Source of the DNA: a virus
DNA: 13,295 nt
Virus genome (UHGV): UHGV-0220852
Direction: 5' to 3' (one strand)
Shown: positions 1 through 13,295 of the stretch, piece by piece
Layout of the letters: each line of letters starts with the position of its first letter
How positions within the stretch are numbered: the stretch's first letter is position 1
The notes under the pieces: generated by a model
Databases searched by the model: none
Told to the model about the DNA's origin: nothing
What the model saw: only the letters and a program-made list of their open reading frames with translations
Translations under genes and position numbers: made by a program

Positions 1-875
1 AGGCTGCCGGGGAGATATTCCCCAGACGAGAGTGACGACGCTGACGATTGTAGAAAATCTCAATGTATTCCCGTATTACTGAGATGGCTTCATCCCGGTT
101 ATTAAAACGATAGTGGCTCAGGCTCTCATTTTTCAGCGTTCCCCAGAAGCTTTCCATCGGAGCGTTGTCGTAACAGTTACCTTTACGCGACATTGATGTT
201 TTCAGACCAAACTGCTCCTGTATGACCCGGTAATCGTATGCGCAGTACTGTGAACCTCGATCAGAGTGGTGGATTAGCCCGGCAGGTGGGCGCTGGCTCC
301 TGAGCGCCATAAACAGGGCTTTACCTGTCAGCTCTTTTGTCATGCGCTCTCCCATGGCGTAGCCGACAATTTCGCACGTATAAACATCTTTGATGCCAGC
401 GAGGTACAACCATCCCTCCTGTGTGGCAACATACGTCAGGTCCGCCACCCAGACCTGATTTGGTGCTGTAGGAGCGAACGTCTGGTTCAGCAGATTTGGC
501 GCAACTGGCAGATTGTGGTTCGAGTTCGTAGTCGCTCTGAACTTGCGTTTCTGCTTACAGCGTAGCCTTAGCTCCTTACGAAGACGTGCCAGTCGGTCAC
601 GACCAACGATGATGCCATTCTCTGCCAGCTCCGTCTGGAGCCGCCGGGTTCCATATGTTTCGCGAGTGCGGATATGTGCCACCTTAATCTCCAGTTTTAG
701 CCGCTCATCACTTTGTTTTCTGTCTGAGGGTTCATGCTGTACCCAGTTGTAATAACCGCTCCTGGATACACCAAATACCTGACACATCGCTTCAATGGGA
801 AATTGTTGTCGCCATTGTTCGATTAACGCGTATTTTTCAGCGACTCCTGTGCAAAATACGCTGTTGCTTTTTTTA
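1..875 (-). CDS. IS3-family transposase OrfB (DDE catalytic subunit), truncated by window edge; normally expressed as OrfAB fusion
   Basis: Minus-strand frame open from ~875 to position 1 with recognisable DDE-transposase sequence (translated by hand); absent from the ORF table because it has no in-window start or stop. Confidence 0.75.
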
Positions 876-1125
876 ATATATCTCGCTCAAGGCGAGCTTC
901 ATTTAACGCCTTACGCAGTTGCAGAATTTCAGATTCCAGTTCAGCCACCGTGCGGGAACCAGGAGTACCGAGCCCTTTTCTGGCGGCGGTAACCCATTGT
1001 CCTAAAGTGCCTTCAGGAAGGGATAATCGGGAAGCGCCTTCACTGATCGAAAGTTGATTTTCAAGAACCGTTCTGACAGCTTCGGCTTTGAACTCTTTAG
1101 AGTAACGTTGGGTTTTTCTGCTCAT
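823..1125 (-). CDS. IS3-family transposase OrfA (DNA-binding subunit)
   Basis: 100-aa ORF MSRKTQRYSKEFKAEAVR...ILKKATAYFAQESLKNTR, recognised from memory as IS3/IS600-type OrfA; its 3' end contains the frameshift motif. Confidence 0.85.
   Translation of the reverse strand: MSRKTQRYSKEFKAEAVRTVLENQLSISEGASRLSLPEGTLGQWVTAARKGLGTPGSRTVAELESEILQLRKALNEARLERDILKKATAYFAQESLKNTR
868..875 (-). promoter_or_regulatory. Programmed -1 ribosomal frameshift slippery site (A AAA AAG) for OrfAB
   Basis: T7 run at 869-875 on the + strand gives AAAAAAAG on the coding strand, just before the orfA stop; classic IS3-family arrangement. Confidence 0.6.
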
Positions 1126-1330
1126 TATTAGCTCCTTCTGATGCCATTCTATTTCAGGAAGGAGTGTCCGTTAAACTCAGGCTACCTCAACTGCCAAGAA
1201 CAGGAAGATCGCCGGAGAGCTGCGGACATCTGTATGTTTTGCCATTCGTACAGGAAATTTTGATTATGCTGCGCAGTTCCCTGACTCTCCTAACCTCAAG
1301 GCTTTTGGGGTAAATAAAAAAGAAATTACG

Positions 1331-2395
1331 GTGAAAGAACTTGAAGAAAAATGGCTGGATCTGAAACGAATGGAAATCTCTGCAAATGCATTCAATCGCT
1401 ATGAATCCATTGCAAGGATGATGGTTCCGAAGATTGGTGGCAACCGACTGGTATCAGCAGTGACCAAAGAGGAATTGCTGTATATCAGGAAAGATTTGCT
1501 GACCGGATACCAAAATCCAACAAAAGGTAAAGCTCCAGTAAAAGGACGAAGCGTTGTCACAGTAAATTATTACATGACAACAATCGCTGGAATGTTTCAG
1601 TTTGCTGCAGATCACGGTTACATAGAAGCAAATCCCTTCGAGGGAATTAAGCCTCTTAAAAGAGCCAGGGCAGAACCAGATCCGCTAACTCGTGACGAAT
1701 TTATTCGCCTGATAGATGCTTGCCGGCATCAGCAGACAAAAAACCTGTGGTCATTGGCTGTGTACACAGGAATGCGTCATGGTGAACTGGTCTCCCTGGC
1801 CTGGGAAGATATCGATCTGAAAGCAGGAACAATTACTATCAGGCGCAATTATACGAAACTCGGTGAGTTCACTCTACCTAAAACTGAAGCAAGTACAAAC
1901 AGGGTTGTGCATCTTATCCAGCCCGCTATCAGTGTCCTGAAAAATCAGGCTGAAATGACAAGACTGGGTAAGCAGCACAACATCAAGGTTCAACTACGTG
2001 AATATGGACGTTCAGTAAATCATGAATGTACTTTCGTATTTAACCCCCAGGTGGTTAGAAAAAGCAAACAGGTAGGTTTTATCTACAAGGTAGATTCCAT
2101 TGGCGACTCATGGGAAACAGCCATTAAACGTGCAGGCATCAGGCATCGAAAGGCATACCAGTCACGACACACTTATGCGTGCTGGTCATTATCTGCCGGA
2201 GCAAATCCAAGCTTCATTGCCAGCCAGATGGGGCATGCAAGTGCCCAGATGGTGTTCAATGTATACGGAGCATGGATGACTGACAGCAATGCAGAACAGA
2301 TCGCAATGCTGAATCAGAAGCTGGCAGATTATGTCCCAATGATGTCCCATGGTCACCAAAGTGACACAAGAGACTTATTAAAATCAGTGAGTTAG
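1331..2395 (+). CDS. int: Phage-type tyrosine integrase (site-specific recombinase); probably N-terminally truncated by the IS insertion
   Basis: 354-aa ORF with catalytic-domain motifs (YTGMRHGEL, ...SRHTYACW..., MGHASAQMVFNVYGAW with the tyrosine nucleophile). GTG start; the same frame is open upstream to 1175, reaching the inferred IS terminus, and no N-terminal arm-binding region is recognisable. Confidence 0.8.
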   Translation: MKELEEKWLDLKRMEISANAFNRYESIARMMVPKIGGNRLVSAVTKEELLYIRKDLLTGYQNPTKGKAPVKGRSVVTVNYYMTTIAGMFQFAADHGYIEANPFEGIKPLKRARAEPDPLTRDEFIRLIDACRHQQTKNLWSLAVYTGMRHGELVSLAWEDIDLKAGTITIRRNYTKLGEFTLPKTEASTNRVVHLIQPAISVLKNQAEMTRLGKQHNIKVQLREYGRSVNHECTFVFNPQVVRKSKQVGFIYKVDSIGDSWETAIKRAGIRHRKAYQSRHTYACWSLSAGANPSFIASQMGHASAQMVFNVYGAWMTDSNAEQIAMLNQKLADYVPMMSHGHQSDTRDLLKSVS

Positions 2396-2421
2396 CTTTT
2401 AATACCCGTCATGTTAACTGC

Positions 2422-2823
2422 GTGGAGGGCAACACCACGCTTTACGCCCTGCCGAAACCCGAGGTTGTCCTGCGCTGGCGTGAACAGACCACAGATGACT
2501 TCCGCTTCTGTTTTAAGTTTCCGGCGACCATTTCGCATCAGGCAGCATTACGACATTGCGATGATTTAGTGACTGAATTTTTGACCCGCATGTCACCGTT
2601 GGCTCCGCGCATTGGGCAATACTGGCTGCAACTGCCTGCCACATTCGGCCCACGGGAGCTGCCTGCGCTTTGGCATTTTCTCGATTCTCTCCCTGGCGAA
2701 TTTAATTATGGTGTGGAAGTCCGCCATCCACAGTTTTTCGCCAAAGGGGAAGAGGAACAAACGCTTAATCGCGGTTTACATCAGCGCGGCGTTAATCGGG
2801 TGATTTTTATTAGACACGTTTAA
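2422..2823 (+). pseudogene. yecE: Internal fragment of a DUF72 (YecE-like) gene, apparently cut at both ends by insertions
   Basis: 133-aa ORF VEGNTTLYALPKPEVVLRWREQTTDDFRFCFKFPATISH...YWLQLPATFGP...VEVRHPQFF fits the DUF72/YecE pattern but covers only about the middle of a ~270-aa protein; it ends abruptly (...NRVIFIRHV*) 50 bp before the serine recombinase gene and starts 27 bp after the integrase stop. Confidence 0.6.
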
Positions 2824-2875
2824 ATACACTACCTAAAGCGATACAATCTAGGTATCAGTTTTGAGGTGGTAAACA
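2805..2875. other. Putative left attachment junction (attL) of the serine-recombinase element plus recombinase promoter/RBS region
   Basis: yecE homology stops here; short inverted repeat ACCTA-N14-TAGGT at ~2832-2855; RBS GAGGTGG before the recombinase ATG. Exact crossover not determinable from one junction. Confidence 0.3.
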
Positions 2876-4399
2876 ATGAAACGTGTCATTTCATACATTC
2901 GTTTCTCATCAGAGAAGCAAGCTAAAGGCGACTCACTCCGCAGACAATCTAAGATGGTCACTGATTGGCTTAAGGCTCATCCTGAGTACTACCTTGACCA
3001 AGATTTATCCTTCCGTGATTTGGGGGTGAGTGGGTTCACTGGTAAGCACTTGAAAGGTGGCTTAGGTGACTTCTTAACCGCTATCGAGAAAGGGCTTGTT
3101 AAAGCTGGTGATACATTATTAATCGAGAGTTTAGACCGTTTGTCACGTCAGGCCGTAGACCGAGCAAGTGAGCTATTACGAAACATTCTTCGCTCTGGTG
3201 TAGATGTAGTCACCCTGTCCGATGGTGAACATTACACAAGTGAGTCTCTTAAAGACCCGTTAGCTCTGATTAAAAGCATTTTGATAATGCAGCGGTCGCA
3301 TGAAGAGAGTTTGAGGAAGTCTGAGCGTATACAAGCTGCATGGGATGCAAAGAAAGAAGCTGCTAAAGCTGGTATCAAGATTTCTAAGCGTTGTCCTGCA
3401 TGGCTTAAGCTTAATGATGACCGTAAGACCTTCTCTGTGATACCTGATAAAGTGGAGACTGTGAAGAGGTGCTTTCAGCTACGGTTAGAGGGTAAGTCTA
3501 TCTGGGAGATTGTCAGAACTCTTAATGCTGAAGGTCACCGGTCGATGAACCAATACAAGCCGGGTAAGTTTGGTCAAACATCTGTTCAAGACCTTTTGAA
3601 GAATCGCTCTGTAATTGGATACTTTACCCCGAAAGGCTGTGAAGAGATTGCAGGTTATTACCCGTCTGTAATTGATGAGACAACATTCTACAAAGTCCAG
3701 CAACTATCACATTCTCGTCACGGTCGAAAACCTGTTTCAGATAAACCATTGAGTGTGAATCTCTTTAAAGGGGTTATCCGTTGTTCTGAATGTGGTCATG
3801 CTTTGATTATCACAGGCTTTAGCGATACAAGAAACGGGATTTATCGTTGTCCTCTTCGTAATGAAAACCGTTGTAGTGCTAAAGGGCTGTCACGTAAGCA
3901 AACCGATGGTACATTGCTTACCCTGCTATCTCGTCTTGACCGATTTGATAGCGATATGACGAATACCATAGACACACTGAAGCTACACCGTGAACACATC
4001 TCAAGCAATATTGAGAAGCTGGTACAGCTATCACTTGAAATTGAAGACCTGAACGCTATTACCAACAAGCTAAAACAACTAAAGAATGAGTTATCACAGG
4101 TTGATGCTGATATCGAGAAGGAGACACAGCGGCTTAAGTCTATCGATACAGGCTCTTTGTCCGATTGTGACTTGAGTACAAAGGCGGGAAGGATTGAAGC
4201 ACAACTGATAATCAAAAGTGCTGTTAAAGAGGTCGTTTTAAATACTGCTAAACGTCGCTGTAAAGTGACTTTTCACAACGGTAAGTCAATCACCTTACCA
4301 ATAACAGAAAACCCCTCAGAGGACGTTACAGAGGCTATACAGTCGCTTTCTGAAGTCACTGAGAGGGGTTTAATAGACGTTGATGTAGTAGAGATTTAG
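2876..4399 (+). CDS. Large serine recombinase (phage/ICE-type integrase)
   Basis: 507-aa ORF: N-terminal resolvase-type catalytic domain (YIRFSSEKQ with serine nucleophile, ...[12 protein letters not shown]...), recombinase domain, Cys-rich zinc ribbon (CSECGH...YRCP...C) and C-terminal coiled coil; strong RBS. Confidence 0.9.
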
Positions 4400-5169
4400 T
4401 ATCTTTTGTTAGGATTCACACTAAACTTCTTCAAAGTACTACCTGTACCAGCATTATTAAGCACCTTTGAAGCTTGCTCATTAGCGGCATCTGAGAAGGT
4501 GCTTTTTCCATTCTTAATTTTGACACTTCTACCACAATTGATACGGGCTTGAAGTTGCTCATTAGTGAGTTCACTCGTAGAGCGATTATATAGCTCCTGA
4601 CACATCAACATACCGTTACCTAAACTTGTTGTGGTGTTTCCAGTATTCTTTTTAGAAGTTGCTCCACCATCATTCGTGGTAGCGGTCTTGCCAGTAGCAG
4701 ATGAAATATCAGTTTGCCCTACGATTGAACGAAATTCTACACCTTGGAAGGTCATCTGAATACGAAGACCATTAGCAATGGTATGCTCTTTACTCGCTTT
4801 AAACTGAGTAATGATACTATCAGTGATAGATATTCCATCTTTACAAACAATAGTGATGATTTGCTTCTGGTCTCGCCATTGTTCAACCGTAGAAATAAAG
4901 GTTTCTACAAGTTGCCCCTGTCTGGTTAATAGAACTGAACCCGTCGAATCAACCACTACAACACCGCTAATAGAGATGGTCTTAGGTGCTCTCTGAACAT
5001 TATCAGTTATAGTTTGCCCCGATTGCATAGCCTGAGTTGTCACCATCATCGGTGAGTCATAGTCCATCTGTTCAGTAGCTGTTAAGGCAAGAAAAGATTC
5101 TACATTATCTCTAAGGTGAAAATAGATACCATCTTTACCTGAGTATCTAATTTGCTTTGTGTCAAACAT
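4396..5169 (-). CDS. Hypothetical protein (257 aa); possibly tail-associated (sits immediately downstream of the tape-measure-like gene)
   Basis: Long ORF converging on the recombinase gene with a 4-bp stop overlap; Thr/Ser/Gly-rich mid-section; no motif I can name. Confidence 0.55.
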
Positions 5170-5253
5170 TGTTGTTATTCCTATTCTGTTAAGCGTGAGC
5201 TACGTGAAATCTAATTTTTGATGTTGGTATCTGTTCAGAAGAAATCACGTAGC

Positions 5254-5317
5254 ATTCGACTATTCATAGTTGAATCGTCATACTAGATAAAGATTAATAG
5301 ATTGCCATGTGTGGCAA
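5254..5317. promoter_or_regulatory. Two palindromic operator-like sites in the 174-bp gap upstream of the 257-aa gene
   Basis: ATTCGACTAT-tc-ATAGTTGAAT (5254-5275, 10-2-10 with one mismatch) and TTGCCA-tgtg-TGGCAA (5302-5317, perfect 6-4-6). Confidence 0.3.
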
Positions 5318-5342
5318 TAAATATTAGTAGTTCTAACATTGT

Positions 5343-7418
5343 TTATTCCTCTGGGTAAGCTGAGCTAATCAAGGTATCTTCCTGCATACGATTAATATGA
5401 GATGTGGTTCTTTCATCAATAACCTTTCCATCAAGTACCGTCTGAGTTGTGATATTGATTGTCTGAGGCTGAATGTTTACTGACGGCTTGATAACCTTTA
5501 AATCTTGTGTGAATGTTTCCACTCGACCTTTCAGATTATTTAATGCTTCAGGTGAAAACTGTGGAACATCCTTTGATTTGCCCTGAACCATAGCCCATAA
5601 AACAGCAGCTAAAGAGTTCATGTCACCAGTCAATGCTTGGTCTGTGGGTTCCACCTTTGACCTTACAACTTTGTCAATTGGATTATCTGACTTACTCATC
5701 TGACGTTCATAGAACGGTTTAACAATGGAGTTAATCACATCAGTTGCCATACCGACAATCATTACTTTGGTAATTGCATCAGCTACAGATAATTTTCCTT
5801 TACCACCTTCAATACTACCGGAACGTGAATTAATTCTTCCTGCTGCTGTATTTGCTACATTTCCAAGCGTGGAAATAGCCCTAATTAAGCTCCAGATGCC
5901 ACCTACAGCACCAATACCAGACCTTACAGCAACAATACCAGCAAGTCCCTTTAATGCACTTAACAGGCCATTTGCGATACCATCAGCTACAGCTTTTTGA
6001 GTGTCATTTAATTCTCTGTAAGCAAGGGTCACTCTGTCAAAGAATCCCTGCACTCGGTAGCTAATCGTGGTTAAATCATCAATACCGTTTGACATACTTT
6101 TCATCAAGTCGCCAAAATGTTCACCAAGATTTTTTGATTGCCCACCTAGCGAATTAAGTAAATTAGTCAGTGACCTTGTAAAGTCTGTTAAACCTTCCTG
6201 TGAACCGTCGAACATTAAGGCCAGATTATTATTCCATGAATTAGAAAGGCGGCCTAACTGCGTCTGAGTAGAGTTAATAATCTTTTCCCATCCACCAGCT
6301 TTATCAATCATCCTTCCCATTTCAGCGGATACTTTAGGAAGAACATCTTTAGAAAGAACTTTACCGTCTTTCATAGCCTTGTCTAATTCTTCTGTAGTCA
6401 TCCCAAGGCTTCTGGCAAATAACTGGAAAGCACCTGCCATTCTGTCACCTAATTGACCACGTAGCTCTTCAGCCTGAATCTTCCCTTTAGAAGCCATCTG
6501 CTCGAAAGCTTTCAGAATCCCGTTAATTTCATCAGTACTTAAACCCATTAATCTGGATGTGCCAATCACATTAGAAAATAGGGATTCTTTCTGGTCTGTA
6601 TTCATATCACCAGCACCAGCGGAAAACTTAGCAAAACTGCTTAATGTTTCAATCTGGTCTACACCTGTATTATTAGCAAGATTCTTAACGAAGTCTGTAG
6701 CTCGTTTAGCGCCTTCATCGCCTAATACAAATTGTGCCGCTCGTTGTGATGCTTCTTTTTTCAGGCCAATCTCCATAACCTTCTTGTAAGCTTCTAAGGC
6801 TGTCTGAAAACTATAAATGGCTGTACCTGCTTTGATTGCACTTGTAGCTAATACATCCAGACCATTCGAGGCATATTCACTGTGATTATTTTTGCTGGTG
6901 GTCTTATTAAACTTAGAAAGTGTTTCACGTAGATTTTGATTTAATTTTGCTAACTCACGATTAAAAGCTTCGTTTCCAAGTGTCTTGGATTTGCTGCTTA
7001 AGCTGTAATACTGACTCTTAAAATACTTCTCAAGCATAGGATTAAAGTCACGAAGCTTGCTCATATCCACGCTATGTGCTGCTGTGATTGCTCTGTTGCC
7101 GCTAATTCGTGGCTGTCTTGGCTGTCTAAGTGGCTTTAAAGTATCCTCAATTTCCGTTTTAATCTTAAACGCTCTAGTGTTTTTAAGACGCTGCTCAATC
7201 TTGTCAAAGGTCTTATTAAACTTCCTTTCAAGTTGCCCTAAAGAACTTGTCAGATTGCTGTCAAGTTGCTTGGTATCGACCTTAAACGCTCTATTCAAAT
7301 TACGTTCAATTCTTTGTGCTGACTGCAAAGCTGCCTTTTCAACTCTTTGCAAGCCCTTAATAACGTTTTCATTGAAGCCTAGCTCAACGATAAAACTATC
7401 AACTGTGAATTTGCTCAT
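5343..7418 (-). CDS. Tape-measure-like protein (phage tail length tape measure / minor tail family)
   Basis: 691-aa ORF: coiled-coil-like N-terminus, central segment ...GLSTDEINGILKAFEQMASKGKIQAEELRGQLGDRMAGAFQLFARSLGMTTEELDKAMKDGKVLSKDVLPKV... resembling the conserved TMP core, and Gly-rich hydrophobic stretches near the C-terminus. Assignment is by motif memory, not a search. Confidence 0.6.
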   Translation of the reverse strand: MSKFTVDSFIVELGFNENVIKGLQRVEKAALQSAQRIERNLNRAFKVDTKQLDSNLTSSLGQLERKFNKTFDKIEQRLKNTRAFKIKTEIEDTLKPLRQPRQPRISGNRAITAAHSVDMSKLRDFNPMLEKYFKSQYYSLSSKSKTLGNEAFNRELAKLNQNLRETLSKFNKTTSKNNHSEYASNGLDVLATSAIKAGTAIYSFQTALEAYKKVMEIGLKKEASQRAAQFVLGDEGAKRATDFVKNLANNTGVDQIETLSSFAKFSAGAGDMNTDQKESLFSNVIGTSRLMGLSTDEINGILKAFEQMASKGKIQAEELRGQLGDRMAGAFQLFARSLGMTTEELDKAMKDGKVLSKDVLPKVSAEMGRMIDKAGGWEKIINSTQTQLGRLSNSWNNNLALMFDGSQEGLTDFTRSLTNLLNSLGGQSKNLGEHFGDLMKSMSNGIDDLTTISYRVQGFFDRVTLAYRELNDTQKAVADGIANGLLSALKGLAGIVAVRSGIGAVGGIWSLIRAISTLGNVANTAAGRINSRSGSIEGGKGKLSVADAITKVMIVGMATDVINSIVKPFYERQMSKSDNPIDKVVRSKVEPTDQALTGDMNSLAAVLWAMVQGKSKDVPQFSPEALNNLKGRVETFTQDLKVIKPSVNIQPQTINITTQTVLDGKVIDERTTSHINRMQEDTLISSAYPEE

Positions 7419-7520
7419 TGTTCATGTTTCACCTCTTTAAGTGTTCATATACAAAAAAGGGAGAGCTACCGATGTCACTCGATAATCTCTCCCGTTGATT
7501 TTTACCCAACCAATTCTTTT

Positions 7521-7739
7521 TTAATGTCTGACAAGATAATATAATTCCGTTTCACCTATGATTTGGGCATCAGAAGGGATACGGTCGATACACCACTTTG
7601 GAATCTTGCGTGTTTTTGGTTTGTGTGAGGTGATAACTTGACGTTGATTTCCAATTCGTAGCTTTGGTTTGTTGGGTTGTTCTTTCAATCGTTCACTAAT
7701 TGCTTTAATAAGCTCATAGCGTTCTGTTAAATCAATCAT
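7521..7739 (-). CDS. Hypothetical basic protein (72 aa)
   Basis: ORF with AGGTG RBS 4 nt upstream; Lys/Arg-rich; same operon as the TMP-like gene. Confidence 0.5.
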   Translation of the reverse strand: MIDLTERYELIKAISERLKEQPNKPKLRIGNQRQVITSHKPKTRKIPKWCIDRIPSDAQIIGETELYYLVRH

Positions 7740-7762
7740 TCACCACCTCACATTAGTTTCAA

Positions 7763-8179
7763 TTAGAAGTCCAGCAATTCCTCTATTAAGTAGCCTTTTC
7801 CAGCTAAATCCCGATACCGCTTATCTAATTCTGCCTGATAAGAATCGAGATTTTTTAGATAGTCATCTTTAAATTCAGCAAGTAACTCTTCATTAGTTTT
7901 ACTGGTAAAGTCCCTGATGTAACTCCCACCAATCGCTACGCTAATAGTTCTTGTTCCATCATCAAAGTCTATCATTTCAGTAATTTCTGGTGGATTATAA
8001 CTATCTCTTAATCGCTCAATATCCCGATTAACATCCCTAATCAGGAAAGTTAAGTCATCTCGACCATCAAATTTTAAATCTTCCAGAGACTCACCTTCGT
8101 AAATACGTTCACGAAGATATCCGGTAATCTCATCGATAGCATCAAACTTCTTTCTAAGAATATAAAAAATAGGACTCAT
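7763..8179 (-). CDS. Hypothetical acidic protein (138 aa)
   Basis: ORF with GAGGTG RBS that overlaps the stop of the upstream 236-aa gene; Asp/Glu-rich. Confidence 0.55.
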   Translation of the reverse strand: MSPIFYILRKKFDAIDEITGYLRERIYEGESLEDLKFDGRDDLTFLIRDVNRDIERLRDSYNPPEITEMIDFDDGTRTISVAIGGSYIRDFTSKTNEELLAEFKDDYLKNLDSYQAELDKRYRDLAGKGYLIEELLDF

Positions 8180-8187
8180 TCATCACC

Positions 8188-8898
8188 TCAAAGTGCTTTG
8201 CTATATTTCTGAGAAATCTTCGTAAGCTGCTCAATATCAGCCTGCATAGCAACCTTCTTAGCATCTTCATATTCTTTCACAAGCTCTTTCATAGCCTGAA
8301 GCTCTCTTGAGAGATACAACTTAGCACTATCAAGCTGCTTGTTACGTGATGCCAAGATGTTCTGTTTAGCAAGTTCACAGAGTTCTTCATCGCTCTTATT
8401 GGTCATGTAAATAAACTGACCAGCACCTCTTGATGCCTTAACCATCTTCACAATTCGATATCCAGCAGGAAGACTACTAATCACGGCTGCGACGTTTTCT
8501 TGAAAAGTACCAAAACCATCATTATCTTCGTATTGGTAATAGACAAATGGTTTCTGTGACAATTCATCCTGAATCTCAAATTCTGATGGCTCAATAGCTG
8601 ATTGCATCAGGGTAACTTTACTGTAAGCATCATCTAGTTTAATACGCTGTGCTTTTAGCAGTGGGTAATATTCACGCTCAAGATTAAATAGTGCTTCAGT
8701 TTTACCAATATCGGGCATCTCTTGAGACTCAGGCGTCACAAAGATGATTTCCTTTGGTGACATCTTTAACTCTTGCTCAAGTGCAATTCTTTCATCGTGT
8801 TCTTTGCGCTGGATAGTGATAGCTGGATGTTCAGTCTGTGGCGACCAGTCACCGAAACTATCAATCACTTTGTTATTAATGTAAATATCGTTTGTCAT
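8188..8898 (-). CDS. Hypothetical protein (236 aa), first gene after the long leader
   Basis: ORF with AAGGGGA RBS; C-terminal region looks coiled-coil; no recognisable motif. Confidence 0.6.
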   Translation of the reverse strand: MTNDIYINNKVIDSFGDWSPQTEHPAITIQRKEHDERIALEQELKMSPKEIIFVTPESQEMPDIGKTEALFNLEREYYPLLKAQRIKLDDAYSKVTLMQSAIEPSEFEIQDELSQKPFVYYQYEDNDGFGTFQENVAAVISSLPAGYRIVKMVKASRGAGQFIYMTNKSDEELCELAKQNILASRNKQLDSAKLYLSRELQAMKELVKEYEDAKKVAMQADIEQLTKISQKYSKAL

Positions 8899-9008
8899 TG
8901 TTTTCCCCTTCTAAGATATTCAGTTTTTAAAAAGCACACCTGACAGCCTACGAACTTAGAAGAGGCTTAAAAGGCGGTTTGCCAAGTATGCTTTTTAAAA
9001 GCTGAAAA

Positions 9009-9040
9009 AGCCCTAGATAACTAAAACGCTATAAAGGGCT
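9009..9040 (-). terminator. Candidate intrinsic terminator/attenuator hairpin inside the leader
   Basis: AGCCCT (9009-9014) pairs with AGGGCT (9035-9040) around a 20-nt loop; on the minus strand the hairpin is followed by TTTTTCAGCTTTT. The long loop makes it weak. Confidence 0.3.
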
Positions 9041-9228
9041 AAGGTGAAGAAATTAAAAAAAATATCTAAAGGATTCAATAACGAATGATTAAGCACTTTT
9101 CGAGATGACCTCTCAGGTTGTATAAGAGGCCATGTAGCGAAAAGCATTGCACCTTTCAGAATAACTATCCCTAGATGTAGATGGAATTGTTGAAAGAAAT
9201 AAGAGAGAATTACTCTCCCATAATTAAA

Positions 9229-9257
9229 ATTATGTCATGCTTAAGGTTATTTGTCAA
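9229..9257 (-). promoter_or_regulatory. Sigma70-type promoter reading leftward (TTGACA-17-CATAAT)
   Basis: Consensus -35 (9257-9252) and CATAAT -10 (9234-9229) with 17-bp spacer on the minus strand, ~320 nt upstream of the 236-aa gene start. Confidence 0.5.
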
Positions 9258-9281
9258 CAGCTTTTTAACAGATTGGTAACA

Positions 9282-9359
9282 TCAATTCTTATTTACTGTG
9301 TTACCCATCCAGCAACCAACAAATAGCCCTAAAGCCGTCCAGAGAATAACGAGCATCAT
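9282..9359 (-). CDS. Candidate 25-aa hydrophobic peptide (MMLVILWTALGLFVGCWMGNTVNKN)
   Basis: Start overlaps the stop of the upstream 102-aa gene (ATGA), suggesting translational coupling; too small for the ORF track. Unproven. Confidence 0.3.
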   Translation of the reverse strand: MMLVILWTALGLFVGCWMGNTVNKN

Positions 9360-9664
9360 TGCATCACCTCACTGTAAGGGTTTAATTCATTCTGATAGGT
9401 CAAGAATACATTCAGCTTCAATAATTGCTCCGGGCTTAAATCAAGTCGGTTGCATTCGCTTGTGATAAATCTCTTGTAGTCTGGGTCTGTTACTTCCAGT
9501 TTGTGAACAAAGTCACCAAGTTTAATTTCGTTGATTATATGCTTGTCAATATACGTTGATGCTTCAAAACAATGCATGAAATAGATATTAAAGCCTGACC
9601 TGTTCAGGTCATTAAGCCAATTCATAGTTTCTTGGTCAACCATAACTTGCATTGAATAATTCAT
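9356..9664 (-). CDS. Hypothetical protein (102 aa)
   Basis: The ORF table extends it to 9697 from a TTG; the ATG at 9664 has an AAGGAG RBS 9 nt upstream and avoids overlap with the structured element, so the shorter form is preferred. Confidence 0.6.
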   Translation of the reverse strand: MNYSMQVMVDQETMNWLNDLNRSGFNIYFMHCFEASTYIDKHIINEIKLGDFVHKLEVTDPDYKRFITSECNRLDLSPEQLLKLNVFLTYQNELNPYSEVMQ

Positions 9665-9684
9665 TTTTAAAATCTCCTTTTTAC

Positions 9685-9806
9685 CAGACCTCCTCAATCG
9701 CTCTGTAACGAGCCAAACAGTCTTTTTCAGGGGTAGCCTGTACAGTGGTATTACCCACCCTAAAATAAGGTAGTTTTTTGCGTTAGAATGCGATTGAGAG
9801 CGTCTG
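9685..9806 (+). repeat. Structured repeat element, copy A (candidate ncRNA/regulatory element)
   Basis: Shares conserved 5' and 3' blocks with copy B; CTCAATCGC (9693-9701) pairs with GCGATTGAG (9790-9798), plus outer CAGAC/GTCTG; G-U wobble implies the + strand folds. Confidence 0.5.
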
Positions 9807-9819
9807 AGAAGCTGTTTTT

Positions 9820-10107
9820 CTAATTTCTCTTAAAGCCTCGGACTTGCATAAGATTTTTTGGTCTGGTATCGGCTCTGTTACCATTTCGATGGATAATTTG
9901 CTTGTTGGATTGATAGCCATGATAAAGAAACCAGACAACATATTTCACGTAGAAAGTATATCGGCCTATATTAAATGTTTTGTTGCCGTAGTCGTCGGTA
10001 ATTATCGTGACTGACTCTCCATCAGACCAGTACAGGGAATCACTGGATTCATCATAGATAAGGTGTTCTGTAAAATATCGTCTAACATCTTCATGCCAAG
10101 GTTTCAT
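9820..10107 (-). CDS. Small HNH endonuclease (HNH_3-like)
   Basis: 95-aa ORF ...YTFYVKYVVWFLYHGYQSNKQIIHRNGNRADTRPKNL... fits the small HNH family; GAGGAGG RBS; start overlaps upstream stop (ATGA). Confidence 0.65.
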   Translation of the reverse strand: MKPWHEDVRRYFTEHLIYDESSDSLYWSDGESVTIITDDYGNKTFNIGRYTFYVKYVVWFLYHGYQSNKQIIHRNGNRADTRPKNLMQVRGFKRN

Positions 10108-10319
10108 AAAACCTCCTCACCCCAATAACCTAATTCAATCTTGTGACGCTCAAACCATTCTGGCCTGACTGCTGTTTTCAGTACTTCATTTGGGCCAATG
10201 GCTTTAATGAAAATATCTTTTGAGTTATGGATGTCACCGAATCCGTTTCCTTTAATCAGGAGGTCGGAGATGTAGCGAATCATTTTATCCGTGTGGTATT
10301 CAAAGGTAACGCATAGCAT
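10104..10319 (-). CDS. Hypothetical protein (71 aa)
   Basis: ORF coupled to both neighbours (TAATG overlap upstream, ATGA overlap downstream). Confidence 0.5.
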   Translation of the reverse strand: MLCVTFEYHTDKMIRYISDLLIKGNGFGDIHNSKDIFIKAIGPNEVLKTAVRPEWFERHKIELGYWGEEVL

Positions 10320-10597
10320 TAAACCCCCATTGCTAACTTGTGAATCTTAATACTCAATAGTCGGGCGATATCAATTTTAAAGTTGTTTAGTCCCTTCAAA
10401 GTATCTAAAGCGTCCTGAGTAATTCGGATGTGTTTACGACCTTTAGAAACTGGATATTTAAGTAAATCCGACTCAGTGACCTCTTTAGCAATTGCAAGCT
10501 GCATAACAGTCTGATGAGGCAAGTTAGTAGCTCGTTTAATTCTGGTAAGCTCGTTAAAAGCTTCCTCTGAAATACGGGTTAATGTGTGTTTATTCAT
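10319..10597 (-). CDS. Putative ribbon-helix-helix (CopG/Arc-like) DNA-binding protein (92 aa)
   Basis: Start moved from 10699 to the ATG at 10597 (GAGGA RBS; TAAAATG junction with upstream gene). N-terminus HTLTRISEEAFNELTRIKRATNLPHQTVMQLAIAK has the strand-helix-turn-helix pattern of RHH repressors; a second RHH-like stretch (KHIRITQDALDTLKGL...IDIARLL) may follow. Confidence 0.5.
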   Translation of the reverse strand: MNKHTLTRISEEAFNELTRIKRATNLPHQTVMQLAIAKEVTESDLLKYPVSKGRKHIRITQDALDTLKGLNNFKIDIARLLSIKIHKLAMGV

Positions 10598-10598
10598 T

Positions 10599-11030
10599 TT
10601 AAAATTCCTCCAAAATATACGGGTCAAACTCAAAGTCTGGTTGCTCGTTTTCCATTGGCTCAATATTACCAACGGCCATATGATGCTCAACAACACCAAT
10701 TAACTTTGCGCACATTACAGCAAGCAAAGCGCAATATTTATCGCTTGGTAATTCATGGCTAAGTCTGGTTGCTTGACGCTGAAGATGATTTGTCACGTTG
10801 GCTGCGTTAATTTCATCAAGATTCTTTAGAATATAAAATAGCTTTCTGTTGTATTTTGGGTGACCTTCACTTCTACAGAATCCGATAATTACTTCGTCAA
10901 TGCCTTTGCGTTCTGCTCTGGTGAACTTGGGTACTTCGTGGCTGGTGGGGGTGTCTGTGTAAGCGTAGGAGTTGTATCTGTTACGTTGTCTCGATGCCTG
11001 AAGCATCGCTCTAAATTCTCTGTCGTTCAT
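10599..11030 (-). CDS. Hypothetical protein (143 aa), first gene of the leftward coupled operon
   Basis: ORF directly downstream of the leftward promoter; acidic C-terminus; no recognisable motif. Confidence 0.6.
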   Translation of the reverse strand: MNDREFRAMLQASRQRNRYNSYAYTDTPTSHEVPKFTRAERKGIDEVIIGFCRSEGHPKYNRKLFYILKNLDEINAANVTNHLQRQATRLSHELPSDKYCALLAVMCAKLIGVVEHHMAVGNIEPMENEQPDFEFDPYILEEF

Positions 11031-11079
11031 TCATAAGCCAGTCCTTATAATTGTTAATTCTCTGTTAACCATATATACA

Positions 11080-11108
11080 ATACTAGCATTTTCAAAGACT
11101 AATGTCAA
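11080..11108 (-). promoter_or_regulatory. Sigma70-type promoter reading leftward (TTGACA-17-TAGTAT)
   Basis: -35 at 11108-11103 and -10 at 11085-11080 on the minus strand, ~50 nt upstream of the 143-aa gene. Confidence 0.5.
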
Positions 11109-11114
11109 GTATTT

Positions 11115-11144
11115 TTAACATTTTATTAACATCTATGGTATAAT
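11115..11144 (+). promoter_or_regulatory. Sigma70-type promoter reading rightward with extended -10 (TTAACA-18-TGgTATAAT)
   Basis: -35 at 11115-11120, TG at 11136-11137, TATAAT at 11139-11144; sits back-to-back with the leftward promoter, -35 elements 6 bp apart. Confidence 0.55.
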
Positions 11145-11214
11145 GGTTCTATGAGAGAGGGAAAAATAGAAAAGGCGTGGCTATGAGAATGGTCACATGG
11201 TATTGCATTGCACA

Positions 11215-11313
11215 CAGACCTCTTCAATCGCCCTGTAACGAGTTAAATGGCCTCTTCAGGTCAACTCATAAGGTCAGATACTTTTTGTGTCAGGATGCGA
11301 TTGAGAGCGTCTT
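11215..11313 (+). repeat. Structured repeat element, copy B, in the 5' leader of the rightward transcript
   Basis: Same conserved ends as copy A; TTCAATCGC (11223-11231) pairs with GCGATTGAG (11297-11305), including a T-G wobble; begins ~65 nt after the predicted start site and ends 13 nt before the start codon of the small ORF. Confidence 0.5.
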
Positions 11314-11326
11314 ACAAGGAAATTTA

Positions 11327-11515
11327 ATGGTAAATCTCCCTCCTGAACTGGGGTCACCTGATGTATGGGCTGGTGGAGGTGTTGGGCTGATTGCAGGCTT
11401 ACTACTTCGCTATTTCATCGTCAGGGTGTTTATCGTGTTTCGGTTGTTTGGTCGTGAATGGTCGTTTGACCTCAAGGACAGGACCAGAACAGACAACCAC
11501 ACAGAACCCCGTTAA
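11327..11515 (+). CDS. Candidate small single-pass membrane protein (62 aa)
   Basis: ATG with AAGGA RBS 6 nt upstream; MVNLPPELGSPDVWAGGGVGLIAGLLLRYFIVRVFIVFRLFGREWSFDLKDRTRTDNHTEPR has one hydrophobic helix and a charged tail. The ORF table's 112-aa version starts inside element B and is probably over-extended. Confidence 0.45.
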   Translation: MVNLPPELGSPDVWAGGGVGLIAGLLLRYFIVRVFIVFRLFGREWSFDLKDRTRTDNHTEPR

Positions 11516-11629
11516 ACTCCCTTCAAAACCCCCTGTACGTGATGGTATAGGGGTATCTTTAGCATTTTGTGCTATCTATTAAAAAATAGCTTGACAGAAC
11601 CGGAAAGCTGTATCTATCAAGCATTCACC

Positions 11630-11806
11630 TCTCTGACAGTAACCTCTAAAAGTTCTTATTTTTCAATAAATTGTAATTAGCCATATATAGAGAACTGACA
11701 AGTCTCTTCACAATTAACTCTGTAACCTTAACAGTGATTTCTAAAAATACTTATTTTTCAATAAGTTGTAATTAGCCAATATAAAGGACTGACAAGACCC
11801 TCCACA
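11630..11806. repeat. Tandem direct repeat, two copies, ~95-bp period
   Basis: Copy 1 ~11630-11711 and copy 2 ~11725-11806 share a near-identical core CTTATTTTTCAATAA[A/G]TTGTAATTAGCCA and ACTGACAAG; no ORF. Confidence 0.7.
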
Positions 11807-11835
11807 GAGAACTTCCTGGACTCACTAAGATACAA

Positions 11836-11861
11836 GGCGATAACCCCAGAAAGGGAGAGCC
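11836..11861. repeat. Two-tier GC hairpin, copy 1 of a hairpin repeat (copy 2 at 12049-12082); possible terminator
   Basis: GGC-gataa-CCC-cagaaa-GGG-aga-GCC; shares the core TAACCCCAGA[A/C]AGGG with copy 2, while the outer stem differs in sequence but still pairs. Confidence 0.3.
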
Positions 11862-12048
11862 ACCTTCTAATTGGTATTGTTATGAGGATGCTTCATCCGA
11901 ATCATCTACCAATCCCTAAACCGACTTCTTAAACAATCTTTACAGACCCCGTTCACCAGTCTCAATATTTTATTTCTCGCTCTTCGTTTGTTGCTCGTTT
12001 CTATTATTGAGGGGGTTTGAAAAACCTCTGTAAAATAACCCTTCCAGT

Positions 12049-12082
12049 AAAAAGCGAATAACCCCAGACAGGGGAAATCGCC
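12049..12082 (-). terminator. Candidate intrinsic terminator downstream of the methyltransferase gene
   Basis: On the minus strand: GCGA/TCGC outer stem, CCCC/GGGG inner stem, then TTTTT (A5 at 12049-12053 on +); lies 40 nt after the methyltransferase stop. Confidence 0.45.
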
Positions 12083-12121
12083 TCTTTAACATTCTCATAA
12101 TCAGTACTCTATATGAGAATC

Positions 12122-12790
12122 TTAGCCCAACCTTTGAACAATCCTGTAAGTGGTGCTTAGAGGCATTCTTAGCGATTCTGCGATGCTCTTGATGGATTGC
12201 CCTTGGTCATACATTTTAATCAACCTGTCAAGCGTCTGTGCATCGTGTATATGAGGTCTTCCACGTAAACCACCCCTGTTAACCACGGCAAGTAAAAGCA
12301 TTGTGTCACCACAATAGATTGTCTGGGTAACTTCAACTTTCGGTTTGCGGGGTGTGTTCCTGTATATCAAAACGCAACTTGGAAACGGTGAACGCGCTGC
12401 AACACCTTTCTTCCCTGCTGGTGGAAGGTATTTGACTGCTCGGTGTAACGTTCGAATCTCATGCAGAAAGGGGTTTGTATATACACATCGAAGCCAGTAA
12501 GTTGTCTTTGACCTGTGCGGAACCAGACATACACACACATCAGCTTCAGGGGCTTTTGAGAGGAACCGTTCAGCCATGCTAAACGGCGGGTTACAGAAGA
12601 CCCGTTCACCAACCCATGATTGACGGCTTATATCATCGGTGAACCGTGGCAACAATGCGTCATGCTCAGTTGCAGCACCATCCATTGAGAAACTAAATTC
12701 TCGGTGTAGGTTACGAAATAAACGATACGGTGTACGCCAGTCATCAGAACCACCATGATAACGACCGACATTGATTATTGGATGTGACAC
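12122..12790 (-). CDS. Phage-type DNA N6-adenine methyltransferase (Dam family) with C-terminal resolvase-type HTH extension
   Basis: 222-aa ORF (GTG start): ...SDDWRTPYRLF...MDGAATEHDA...WVGERVFCNPPFS...VCLVPHRSKTTYW... matches the small phage Dam family; the last ~50 residues GRPHIHDAQTLDRLIKMYDQGQSIKSIAESLRMPLSTTYRIV resemble the HTH of Hin/resolvase-type recombinases. Confidence 0.8.
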   Translation of the reverse strand: MSHPIINVGRYHGGSDDWRTPYRLFRNLHREFSFSMDGAATEHDALLPRFTDDISRQSWVGERVFCNPPFSMAERFLSKAPEADVCVCLVPHRSKTTYWLRCVYTNPFLHEIRTLHRAVKYLPPAGKKGVAARSPFPSCVLIYRNTPRKPKVEVTQTIYCGDTMLLLAVVNRGGLRGRPHIHDAQTLDRLIKMYDQGQSIKSIAESLRMPLSTTYRIVQRLG

Positions 12791-13295
12791 AAGCGAAGCG
12801 CCCTCTTAGTATATTTCTTAATCATCTCTTTAGCATTTAGTGCTTTTTGTTAAGTTTAGCACTTTTTGCTAAAGACAAAACACTTGACAAAATGGTAAGA
12901 TTGTTCACATAGCCCTTACTTAACAGACTTTTAAGAGACTTTGAAACGACCTACTTAACAAGGTCACTACCTCTGGTCTTATCACTCCCTCTTGGTAGTT
13001 CTGTTAATAATTTTTCAGTTCTCTCTTAAGACAACTGTTAAGACAGAACCTACCTTCGGTTTTCATGGTTCTCTTCCCCCGTTAAACAGTCCTTCCTAGC
13101 AACTTCATAGTTATCTGTCAAGTGCCTTTGAAGATTCTATCAAGACCTCTGAAGCTGACCTGATATAGATGCTGTGAAGGCATATTCTCTAGGTCTGTGT
13201 AGCTTACTTAGTGGGAAGAGAGGGATATAGTGACCATAGGGGAACCCCTCCTGTTAAAAAGACTACTTAGAAGTCTGAGACTTTAGTAAAATCTG

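Follow-up and report, generated by a model that had tools for sequence, protein, structure and literature searches.

The segment at positions 1126-2875 of a 13,295-nt stretch of the virus genome UHGV-0220852 (the window, meaning the whole stretch analysed) is very probably where three mobile elements of independent origin adjoin inside the chromosomal gene yecE. These are a copy of IS600, the integrase end of a phiP27-type prophage, and an integrative element with a serine recombinase, which starts at window position 2808 and is called the yecE island here; the last is most likely, if only tentatively, a satellite or hijacker of Ounavirinae phages. The window opens inside IS600 and ends inside the yecE island, and both outer ends lie beyond it. 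An earlier sequence-only reading had described a yecE fragment between an interrupted tyrosine integrase and a serine-recombinase element; the features it described are all present, with minor corrections, and its main interpretation is supported. The co-occupancy of yecE is real and ordinary. The yecE junctions were seen again in many independent genomes and so do not reflect chance, and both the phiP27-type site in yecE and the damage by IS600 are already known. Occurrences were counted in 5,426 complete E. coli genomes, and the phage comparison set comprised 50,697 phage genomes. Coordinates in other genomes refer to the loci L001 (E. coli FDAARGOS_944), L002 (E. coli 2011C-4315), L003 (E. 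coli EA2), L011 (FDAARGOS_943), L030 (Pluralibacter gergoviae), L031 (Pectobacterium) and L032 (Klebsiella), and to L004, L006 and L007, which are further island-carrying loci.

The part of yecE in the window is the middle segment of the chromosomal gene, nt 74-479 of 819 (2402-2807, plus strand), and is 99.0% identical to yecE of O157:H7 Sakai. The open reading frame (ORF) at 2422-2823, which had been taken for a yecE-like gene, indeed belongs to the DUF72 family (E 1.3e-31), though its last 16 nt (2808-2823) are derived from the island and not from yecE. It lies 26 nt after the integrase stop and 52 nt before the start of the serine recombinase; the neighbours and their order had been given correctly, with gaps of 27 and 50 bp. 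An intact yecE was found in Sakai (819 nt) and in FDAARGOS_944. Moreover, the yecD-yecE-yecN context is seen in relatives with the same junctions, and the piece is chromosomal rather than phage-borne, the serine-recombinase element being a separate one that occupies yecE alone in other strains. Genomes that have the same elements carry the remaining 347 nt (3') of yecE past the far island end, immediately ahead of yecN, and the rest of the gene has therefore probably been displaced rather than lost. Thus, the statement that only about 400 bp of yecE remain holds for the window, which contains nt 74-479 alone, but probably not for the chromosome. The gene appears to be in three pieces, of which the window holds the middle one, and to be split rather than eroded. 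In the lysogens FDAARGOS_944 (L001 10455-11225) and FDAARGOS_943 (L011 7606-8376), yecE is annotated as a 256-aa product from an ATT codon inside the prophage end, with a hybrid N-terminus and doubtful function.

On the left of yecE lies a truncated tyrosine integrase of the phiP27 type (1190-2395, plus strand), which, by alignment to the genes in L001 and L002, retains codons 37-437 and the stop and has no start codon or promoter of its own. In these two loci the integrase gene has 1314 nt, and position 1190 corresponds to its nt 109, codons 1-36 being missing from the window; the frame is free of stops from the IS600 end to the stop at 2395. Since the full-length homologues (L001, L002) have 437 aa and the window copy begins from codon 37 directly at the IS600 end, the integrase is truncated, as had been supposed from its open frame. 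The catalytic domain is still recognised (Pfam Phage_integrase PF00589, E 2.3e-18). With regard to the arm-binding region, which had been thought to be lacking, half of Arm-DNA-bind_2 is kept (profile positions 32-65 of 65, versus 1-65, at residues 7-70, in the full-length protein); the domain is therefore cut by IS600 but not absent. A full-length integrase of 437 aa was found elsewhere, and in 2011C-4315 it is intact at a doubly occupied yecE.

The origin of this integrase is indicated by its similarity to phiP27, an Stx2e phage, to which window 1190-2424 is 96.0% identical in nucleotides (AJ298298, positions 1-1235). The att core of the prophage, TTAACTGCGTG, lies at the prophage/yecE junction (2414-2424, plus strand) and is aligned to positions 1-11 of the phiP27 record, which are annotated as an 11-bp att; the identity to native yecE is perfect from 2414 onward. 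Homology and the annotated att together show the integration of a phiP27-type lambdoid prophage at the yecE core. It entered through its tyrosine integrase near codon 29-32 of yecE, leaving the integrase end abutting yecE at 2414-2424. In agreement with the earlier reading, yecE is a documented site of such prophages: it serves as att for Stx1a, Stx2a, Stx2d and non-Stx lambdoid phages, with an att of 21 bp (PMC8112680; also PMC6256406), and is among the genes disrupted by prophages (PMC3603311). The window resembles phiP27 and the other lambdoid or Stx prophages in yecE in the integrase (96% in nucleotides), in the identical att core next to the integrase 3' end and in the insertion point in 5' yecE, but it differs from phiP27 in that IS600 interrupts the integrase gene at codon 36/37 and no more than its final 1,206 nt are seen. 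The integrase here is, as judged from these alignments, a disabled remnant of a phiP27-type prophage at yecE.

The element that cut the integrase is a partial IS600 of the IS3 family (1-1189, minus strand). It is 99.7-99.8% identical to two copies in L001 annotated as 'IS3-like element IS600 family transposase', and it shares this identity, as well as orfA (823-1125, minus strand; Pfam HTH_Tnp_1, 1.5e-20) and orfB (2-823, minus strand; Pfam rve, 3.2e-26), with the IS600 of Shigella and enteroinvasive E. coli. In the L001 copies the two frames are joined by a programmed frameshift according to the PGAP annotation. The IS600 homology ends exactly at 1189/1190, where megablast also breaks. The terminus that precedes orfA faces the integrase, and, as compared with the FDAARGOS_944 copy, about 75 bp at the opposite terminus are outside the window. 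With IS600 lying in codon 36/37, the integrase gene has lost its start codon, its promoter and the front half of its arm-binding domain and is a pseudogene. The comparison with the homologues shows the truncation at the IS600 end, and we infer that the prophage, or what remains of it, is unable to excise by itself after this cut. That IS600 fixed the prophage in place is plausible. Two points weigh against this account. First, the exact IS600/integrase junction was found in none of the complete E. coli genomes, leaving no independent copy to compare; known IS600 copies in related strains are inserted at other positions of the same prophage end. Second, with the window starting inside IS600, a simple insertion is indistinguishable from an IS-mediated deletion or inversion and a target-site duplication is uncheckable. 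The absence of this junction from the complete genomes, the IS600 element itself and homologues labelled as Shigella together point tentatively to a Shigella or enteroinvasive lineage for the window. The phiP27-type prophage region is struck repeatedly by IS600 in related lineages. In FDAARGOS_944 (L001 7893-10473) and FDAARGOS_943 (L011 4844-7624), the phiP27-type prophage end at yecE carries IS600 at two other kinds of position, inside the 3' part of the integrase and upstream of xis.

On the right of the yecE segment, the window contains the left 10.5 kb of an integrative island of about 11.3 kb (2808-13295, plus strand), collinear with the islands in L003, L002 and L004. The remainder of about 1.17 kb beyond the window includes attR and 3' yecE; in L003, the position that matches the window end is 14208, with attR near 15380. 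In L002, L003 and L004, attL contains yecE nt 1-479 and attR resumes from yecE nt 473. Because the left junction ends at nt 479 and the right one resumes at nt 473, the shared core is TGATTTT (2801-2807, strand not assigned), common to attB, attL and attR, with the crossover inside. The empty site at yecE reads GGGTGATTTTAGACAGCC, the island junction in the window GGGTGATTTT|TATTAGACACGTTTAAATACAC, and the far island junction in other genomes GTGTATTTAGACCTTGATGATTTT|AGACAGCC. The attP junction sequence of the island is GTGTATTTAGACCTTGATGATTTTTATTAGACACG, and the reconstructed attP, GTGTATTTAGAC...TGATTTT...GTTTAAATACAC, has imperfect dyad symmetry, which is typical of large serine integrases. 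Site features expected of such integrases are seen here, namely the 7-bp core, empty sites elsewhere (Sakai, FDAARGOS_944) and no long direct repeats. Comparison of empty, singly and doubly occupied sites shows a separate integration of the island at TGATTTT; it entered on its own, via the large serine recombinase, at yecE nt 473-479. A 13.4-kb copy in O157:H7 E32511 had raised the suspicion that the island is SpLE2 of Sakai, but this was rejected since yecE is intact in Sakai; SpLE2 maps near sbcB (PMC3519850).

The prophage end and the island are also found apart. The island is alone in yecE in E. coli EA2, in O157:H7 E32511 and at L006 and L007, the phiP27-type prophage end is alone at yecE in FDAARGOS_943 and 944, and strain 2011C-4315 has both elements together with the intact integrase. 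The integrase-yecE junction was found in 422 of the complete E. coli genomes and the serine recombinase gene in 297 (192 nearly full length, none on plasmids), while integrase and serine recombinase were both present in 16. This is roughly what independence predicts (about 15-23), and the prophage end and the island do not appear to be associated. It had been argued that two recombinase families using one small gene make yecE a noteworthy hotspot. Both do act in yecE, but at two different sites about 390 bp apart with unrelated sequences, and because 16 double occupancies are close to the independent expectation, there is no special hotspot and the term was an overstatement.

The recombinase of the island is a large serine recombinase of 507 aa (2876-4399, plus strand), located downstream of the yecE fragment as had been described. 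It carries Pfam Resolvase (3.8e-21), Recombinase (2.5e-14) and Zn_ribbon_recom (4.8e-07), all three above the cut-off, and matches PHROG 95 'integrase' (2.7e-79), which points to its role as the island integrase. It resembles large serine integrases (the phiC31/Bxb1 type, Ccr of SCCmec, XisF) in the three domains, the short attB inside a gene and the attP dyad, with weak NCBIfam similarity to XisF and CcrA, but it differs from them in forming a distinct clade restricted to Enterobacterales with a conserved target at yecE nt 473-479. No candidate for a recombination directionality factor was recognised among the island proteins. The defined 7-bp core and the natural attB make the recombinase a candidate site-specific tool. 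A scan of genome contigs with the recombinase gave as its sole match a 97%-identical fragment on the 548-bp contig NZ_LMVQ01000531.1 (L014), labelled Mycobacterium sp. NAZ190054, which is most likely an assembly contamination. A search for identical proteins gave no match for the recombinase, and for the Dam protein and the tube initiator it led only to contigs where the island occurs alone.

The island family is present in about 5% of complete E. coli and has relatives in Citrobacter, Pluralibacter, Klebsiella and Pectobacterium. The recombinase is 87% identical in E. albertii and 83% in Citrobacter. In Pluralibacter gergoviae the recombinase is 63% identical and the order of recombinase, tube initiator, tape-measure protein (TMP), small ORFs and Dam-HTH is kept, at another locus. 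In Klebsiella grimontii and Pectobacterium aquaticum, with recombinases of 48-50% identity, the TMP is kept (together with Dit_like in Pectobacterium) and yecE is interrupted at the same codon, around 160. Thus, the architecture of recombinase and TMP is retained in Pluralibacter, Klebsiella and Pectobacterium, in the last two at the same yecE position.

All island genes besides the recombinase are on the opposite (minus) strand, and two of them are tail genes. The first encodes a tail-tube initiator of the Ounavirinae type (Pfam Dit_like, 257 aa; 4396-5169), whose best solved-structure match is PDB 9NDY_A, 'Tube initiator protein gp018' (E 2.8e-107). The second encodes a TMP of 691 aa (5343-7418), which matches Pfam TMP_3 (2.7e-21), PHROG 4036 (1e-100) and PDB 9NDY_F, 'Tape measure protein gp017' (E 4.2e-77). 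The best structural matches of both proteins are therefore two chains of one virion, that of Felixounavirus Bas63 (9NDY; PMC12609058). The tube initiator is 68% identical to FDI99_gp113 of Shigella phage Sf14 (Mooglevirus), and its gene is about 75% identical in nucleotides to many Mooglevirus genomes; the Sf14 protein makes up the lower end of the tail tube (PMC11821841). Over its full length, the TMP shares about 29-30% identity with Felix-O1-like TMPs, with short nucleotide patches 76-81% identical to the Sf14 TMP gene, and the order of TMP followed by tube initiator is the same in the island and in Sf14, where the second gene comes directly after the first. The TMP/tube-initiator region (4396-7418) is also found at L002 15207-18317 and L003 5713-8790. 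In the variant of L002 (2011C-4315), the recombinase is 94% identical in amino acids, and the tube initiator shows 59% identity to that of the window and about 70% to its counterparts in Felix-O1-like phages of Salmonella and E. coli. Because the L002 tube initiator is closer to Felix-O1-like phages than to that of the window, the island tube initiators appear interleaved with those of more than one phage genus (Mooglevirus for the window, Felix-O1-like phages for L002).

From this gene content only, we tentatively regard the island as an element that exploits lytic Felix-O1-like myophages (Ounavirinae) as their satellite or hijacker, a reading that we rate a little short of an even chance. 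The island would excise and spread during infection by such a phage and would put its own TMP and tube initiator into the helper tails, in the manner of PLEs with ICP1. PLE, a Vibrio cholerae satellite of the lytic myophage ICP1, integrates by a large serine recombinase (10.1101/671271; PMC9638900). It has its own chaperone, TMP and baseplate hub protein (BhuB), which are 20%, 20% and 41% identical to those of ICP1, and its chimeric tails are about 10 nm shorter than those of the phage (PMC12987554). A precedent thus now exists for a serine-recombinase island with its own TMP. The yecE island resembles PLE in being a small island (11-18 kb) with a large serine recombinase and without a capsid or terminase set, and in carrying its own TMP and one baseplate-proximal protein as diverged copies of those of a lytic myophage (here about 29% and 68% identical to those of Sf14). 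As in PLE, the TMP is shorter than that of the phage, here 691 versus 742-745 aa (54 aa below that of Sf14). It differs from PLE in its hosts, Enterobacterales, in its presumed helper, Ounavirinae, and in the partner of the TMP, which is a tube initiator instead of a hub protein; in addition, no chaperone is recognised in the yecE island, and the likeness is an analogy from gene content. cf-PICIs, PICIs and P4-like satellites are likewise phage-dependent elements in the chromosome and of comparable size, and some cf-PICIs have predicted tmp genes. However, none of the hallmark genes of PICIs and P4-like satellites, which are the tyrosine integrase, AlpA and primase, was found in the yecE island with Pfam, PHROG and NCBIfam. 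cf-PICIs encode capsid or packaging modules (PMC12846349), which these searches likewise did not find in the yecE island, and predicted tmp genes occur in other putative satellites, including some cf-PICIs (PMC12987554, Extended Data Fig. 10).

If the island acts in this way, it may, though again we would not put it beyond a tentative proposal, represent an undescribed and widespread satellite family, the enterobacterial counterpart of PLEs, which makes chimeric tails via replaced TMP and tube initiator and swaps its tail modules to track helper genera (Mooglevirus or Felixounavirus). Phages of the Felix-O1 type find wide use in the typing, biocontrol and therapy of Salmonella, E. coli and Shigella. 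An element that bears their genes for tail length and tube initiation, present in about 5% of E. coli, could act as a parasite of these phages or block them. If true, the chimeric-tail strategy, demonstrated to date for PLE and ICP1 only, would also gain a tractable model in E. coli. Our literature search found no description of a Felix-O1-type satellite or of a serine-recombinase island in yecE.

Several results weigh against the island being a satellite. No replication or packaging gene was recognised in it, and no tail-chaperone homology was found: the proteins o72 and o138, encoded upstream of the TMP gene, showed none to Sf14 gp115/gp116 or to any PDB chain. No phage record holds the island. 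In IMG/VR, all nine recombinase matches are accompanied by at least 10 kb of upstream DNA; because this exceeds what the island itself holds on that side, these matches look integrated, and no free island-sized contig was found among the nine. Neither the phage nor the IMG/VR collections gave an independent packaged copy.

The main rival explanation is that the island is a population-level anti-phage defence that is not transduced, in which the copies of TMP and tube initiator poison the tail assembly of Felix-O1-like phages and the island moves rarely and by other means. We consider this rather unlikely, though it agrees with the close match of the tail genes to lytic Ounavirinae, with the lack of packaging or capsid genes among those found and with the high polymorphism of o236, another island protein; interference with tail assembly is known on mobile elements (PMC11364771; Rta of PLE11, PMC12987554). 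On the other hand, PADLOC found no defence system on the island and matched only an orphan methyltransferase, both tail proteins are full-length, conserved and like functional structural proteins, and the same architecture at the same site across genera implies efficient horizontal transfer.

Still less probable, and in our view distinctly doubtful, is that the island is the decayed remnant of a temperate myophage with a serine integrase, the TMP and tube initiator being mere leftovers. In Yersinia enterocolitica a 38%-identical recombinase adjoins P2-like tail genes, several IMG/VR prophage predictions include the island, and some island copies carry IS insertions, all of which speak for it. 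However, the island ORFs are intact, and E. coli, Pluralibacter, Klebsiella and Pectobacterium share one compact gene set of 11-13 kb at recombinase identities down to 48-63%, which random decay would not keep; the compact gene set and the conserved target over this divergence therefore argue against a randomly decayed prophage. Moreover, the tail genes resemble those of strictly lytic Ounavirinae and not of temperate phages, and the other island proteins match no sequenced phage, a joint query with the non-tail proteins giving no match in the phage comparison set. Finally, it is very improbable that the stacking is more than coincidence, with yecE a selected hotspot or one element helping the other to be acquired or kept (such as the lambdoid prophage serving as helper of the island), since, although two recombinase families target one 819-nt gene and co-occur in 16 complete genomes, this number fits the 15-23 expected from 422 and 192-297 of 5,426, the sites are about 390 bp apart and unrelated, the island tail genes match lytic myophages and not lambdoid siphophages, and the island usually occurs without the prophage.

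The pile-up itself is of minor importance. It is an example of prophage inactivation by IS600 in Shigella-like lineages and of a single gene with two unrelated attachment sites.

The remaining island genes, all on the minus strand, gave few clues. Just upstream of the TMP gene, at the tail-chaperone position, lies o72 (7521-7739), a conserved 72-aa protein with 49-78% identical copies in L002, L003, L004 and L030, for which Pfam, PHROG, NCBIfam and PDB gave no match and Sf14 gp115 none either. The accessory 138-aa protein o138 (7763-8179) is missing from several island variants, including L003 and L004, and has no family match, no PDB chain and no significant similarity to Sf14 gp116. The helical 236-aa protein o236 (8188-8898) is very polymorphic within E. 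coli, with 3,113 homologue clusters; its homologues are often named 'transposase' without domain support. It has no match in Pfam, NCBIfam, PHROG or PADLOC, the PDB sequence search was empty, and a Foldseek search of its AF2 model (mean pLDDT 69, moderate) against BFVD gave nothing below E 0.1. An accessory HNH endonuclease of 95 aa (9820-10107; Pfam HNH_3, 2e-08) is present in L003 and L004 but missing from L002 and L030. Close to the right island end lies a gene for a Dam-type N6-adenine methyltransferase fused to a resolvase-type helix-turn-helix (HTH) domain (12122-12790; Pfam Dam, 4.2e-13; HTH_7, 9.9e-06), which is the PADLOC 'orphan methyltransferase' and is conserved in L002, L003 and L030. 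Searches of the island with Pfam, PHROG, NCBIfam and PADLOC recognised no capsid, terminase, lysis, replication or known defence genes, and Rfam gave no match at the gathering threshold in the whole window.

The non-coding parts of the island show some further features. A segment of about 130 bp upstream of two leftward gene blocks is repeated (9685-9811 and 11215-11318, 81-86% identity), a 95-bp tandem duplication lies at 11636-11813, and a back-to-back pair of strong sigma-70-like promoters is found at 11068-11144 in a gene-poor stretch of 1.1 kb. These repeats, the tandem duplication and the promoter pair may constitute a regulatory switch or an origin. The final stretch of the island after the Dam-HTH gene, about 1.7 kb (window 12791-13295; L003 13701-15380), contains no ORF that is annotated or evident, an unusual length for such a compact element. 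Relatives of the island carry extra cargo, namely an AbiTii-domain protein in Klebsiella and small resolvase/invertase genes in Klebsiella, Pectobacterium and Pluralibacter (L032 11693-12589; L031 14643-15281; L030 20136-20705), which hints at a variable accessory or defence slot.

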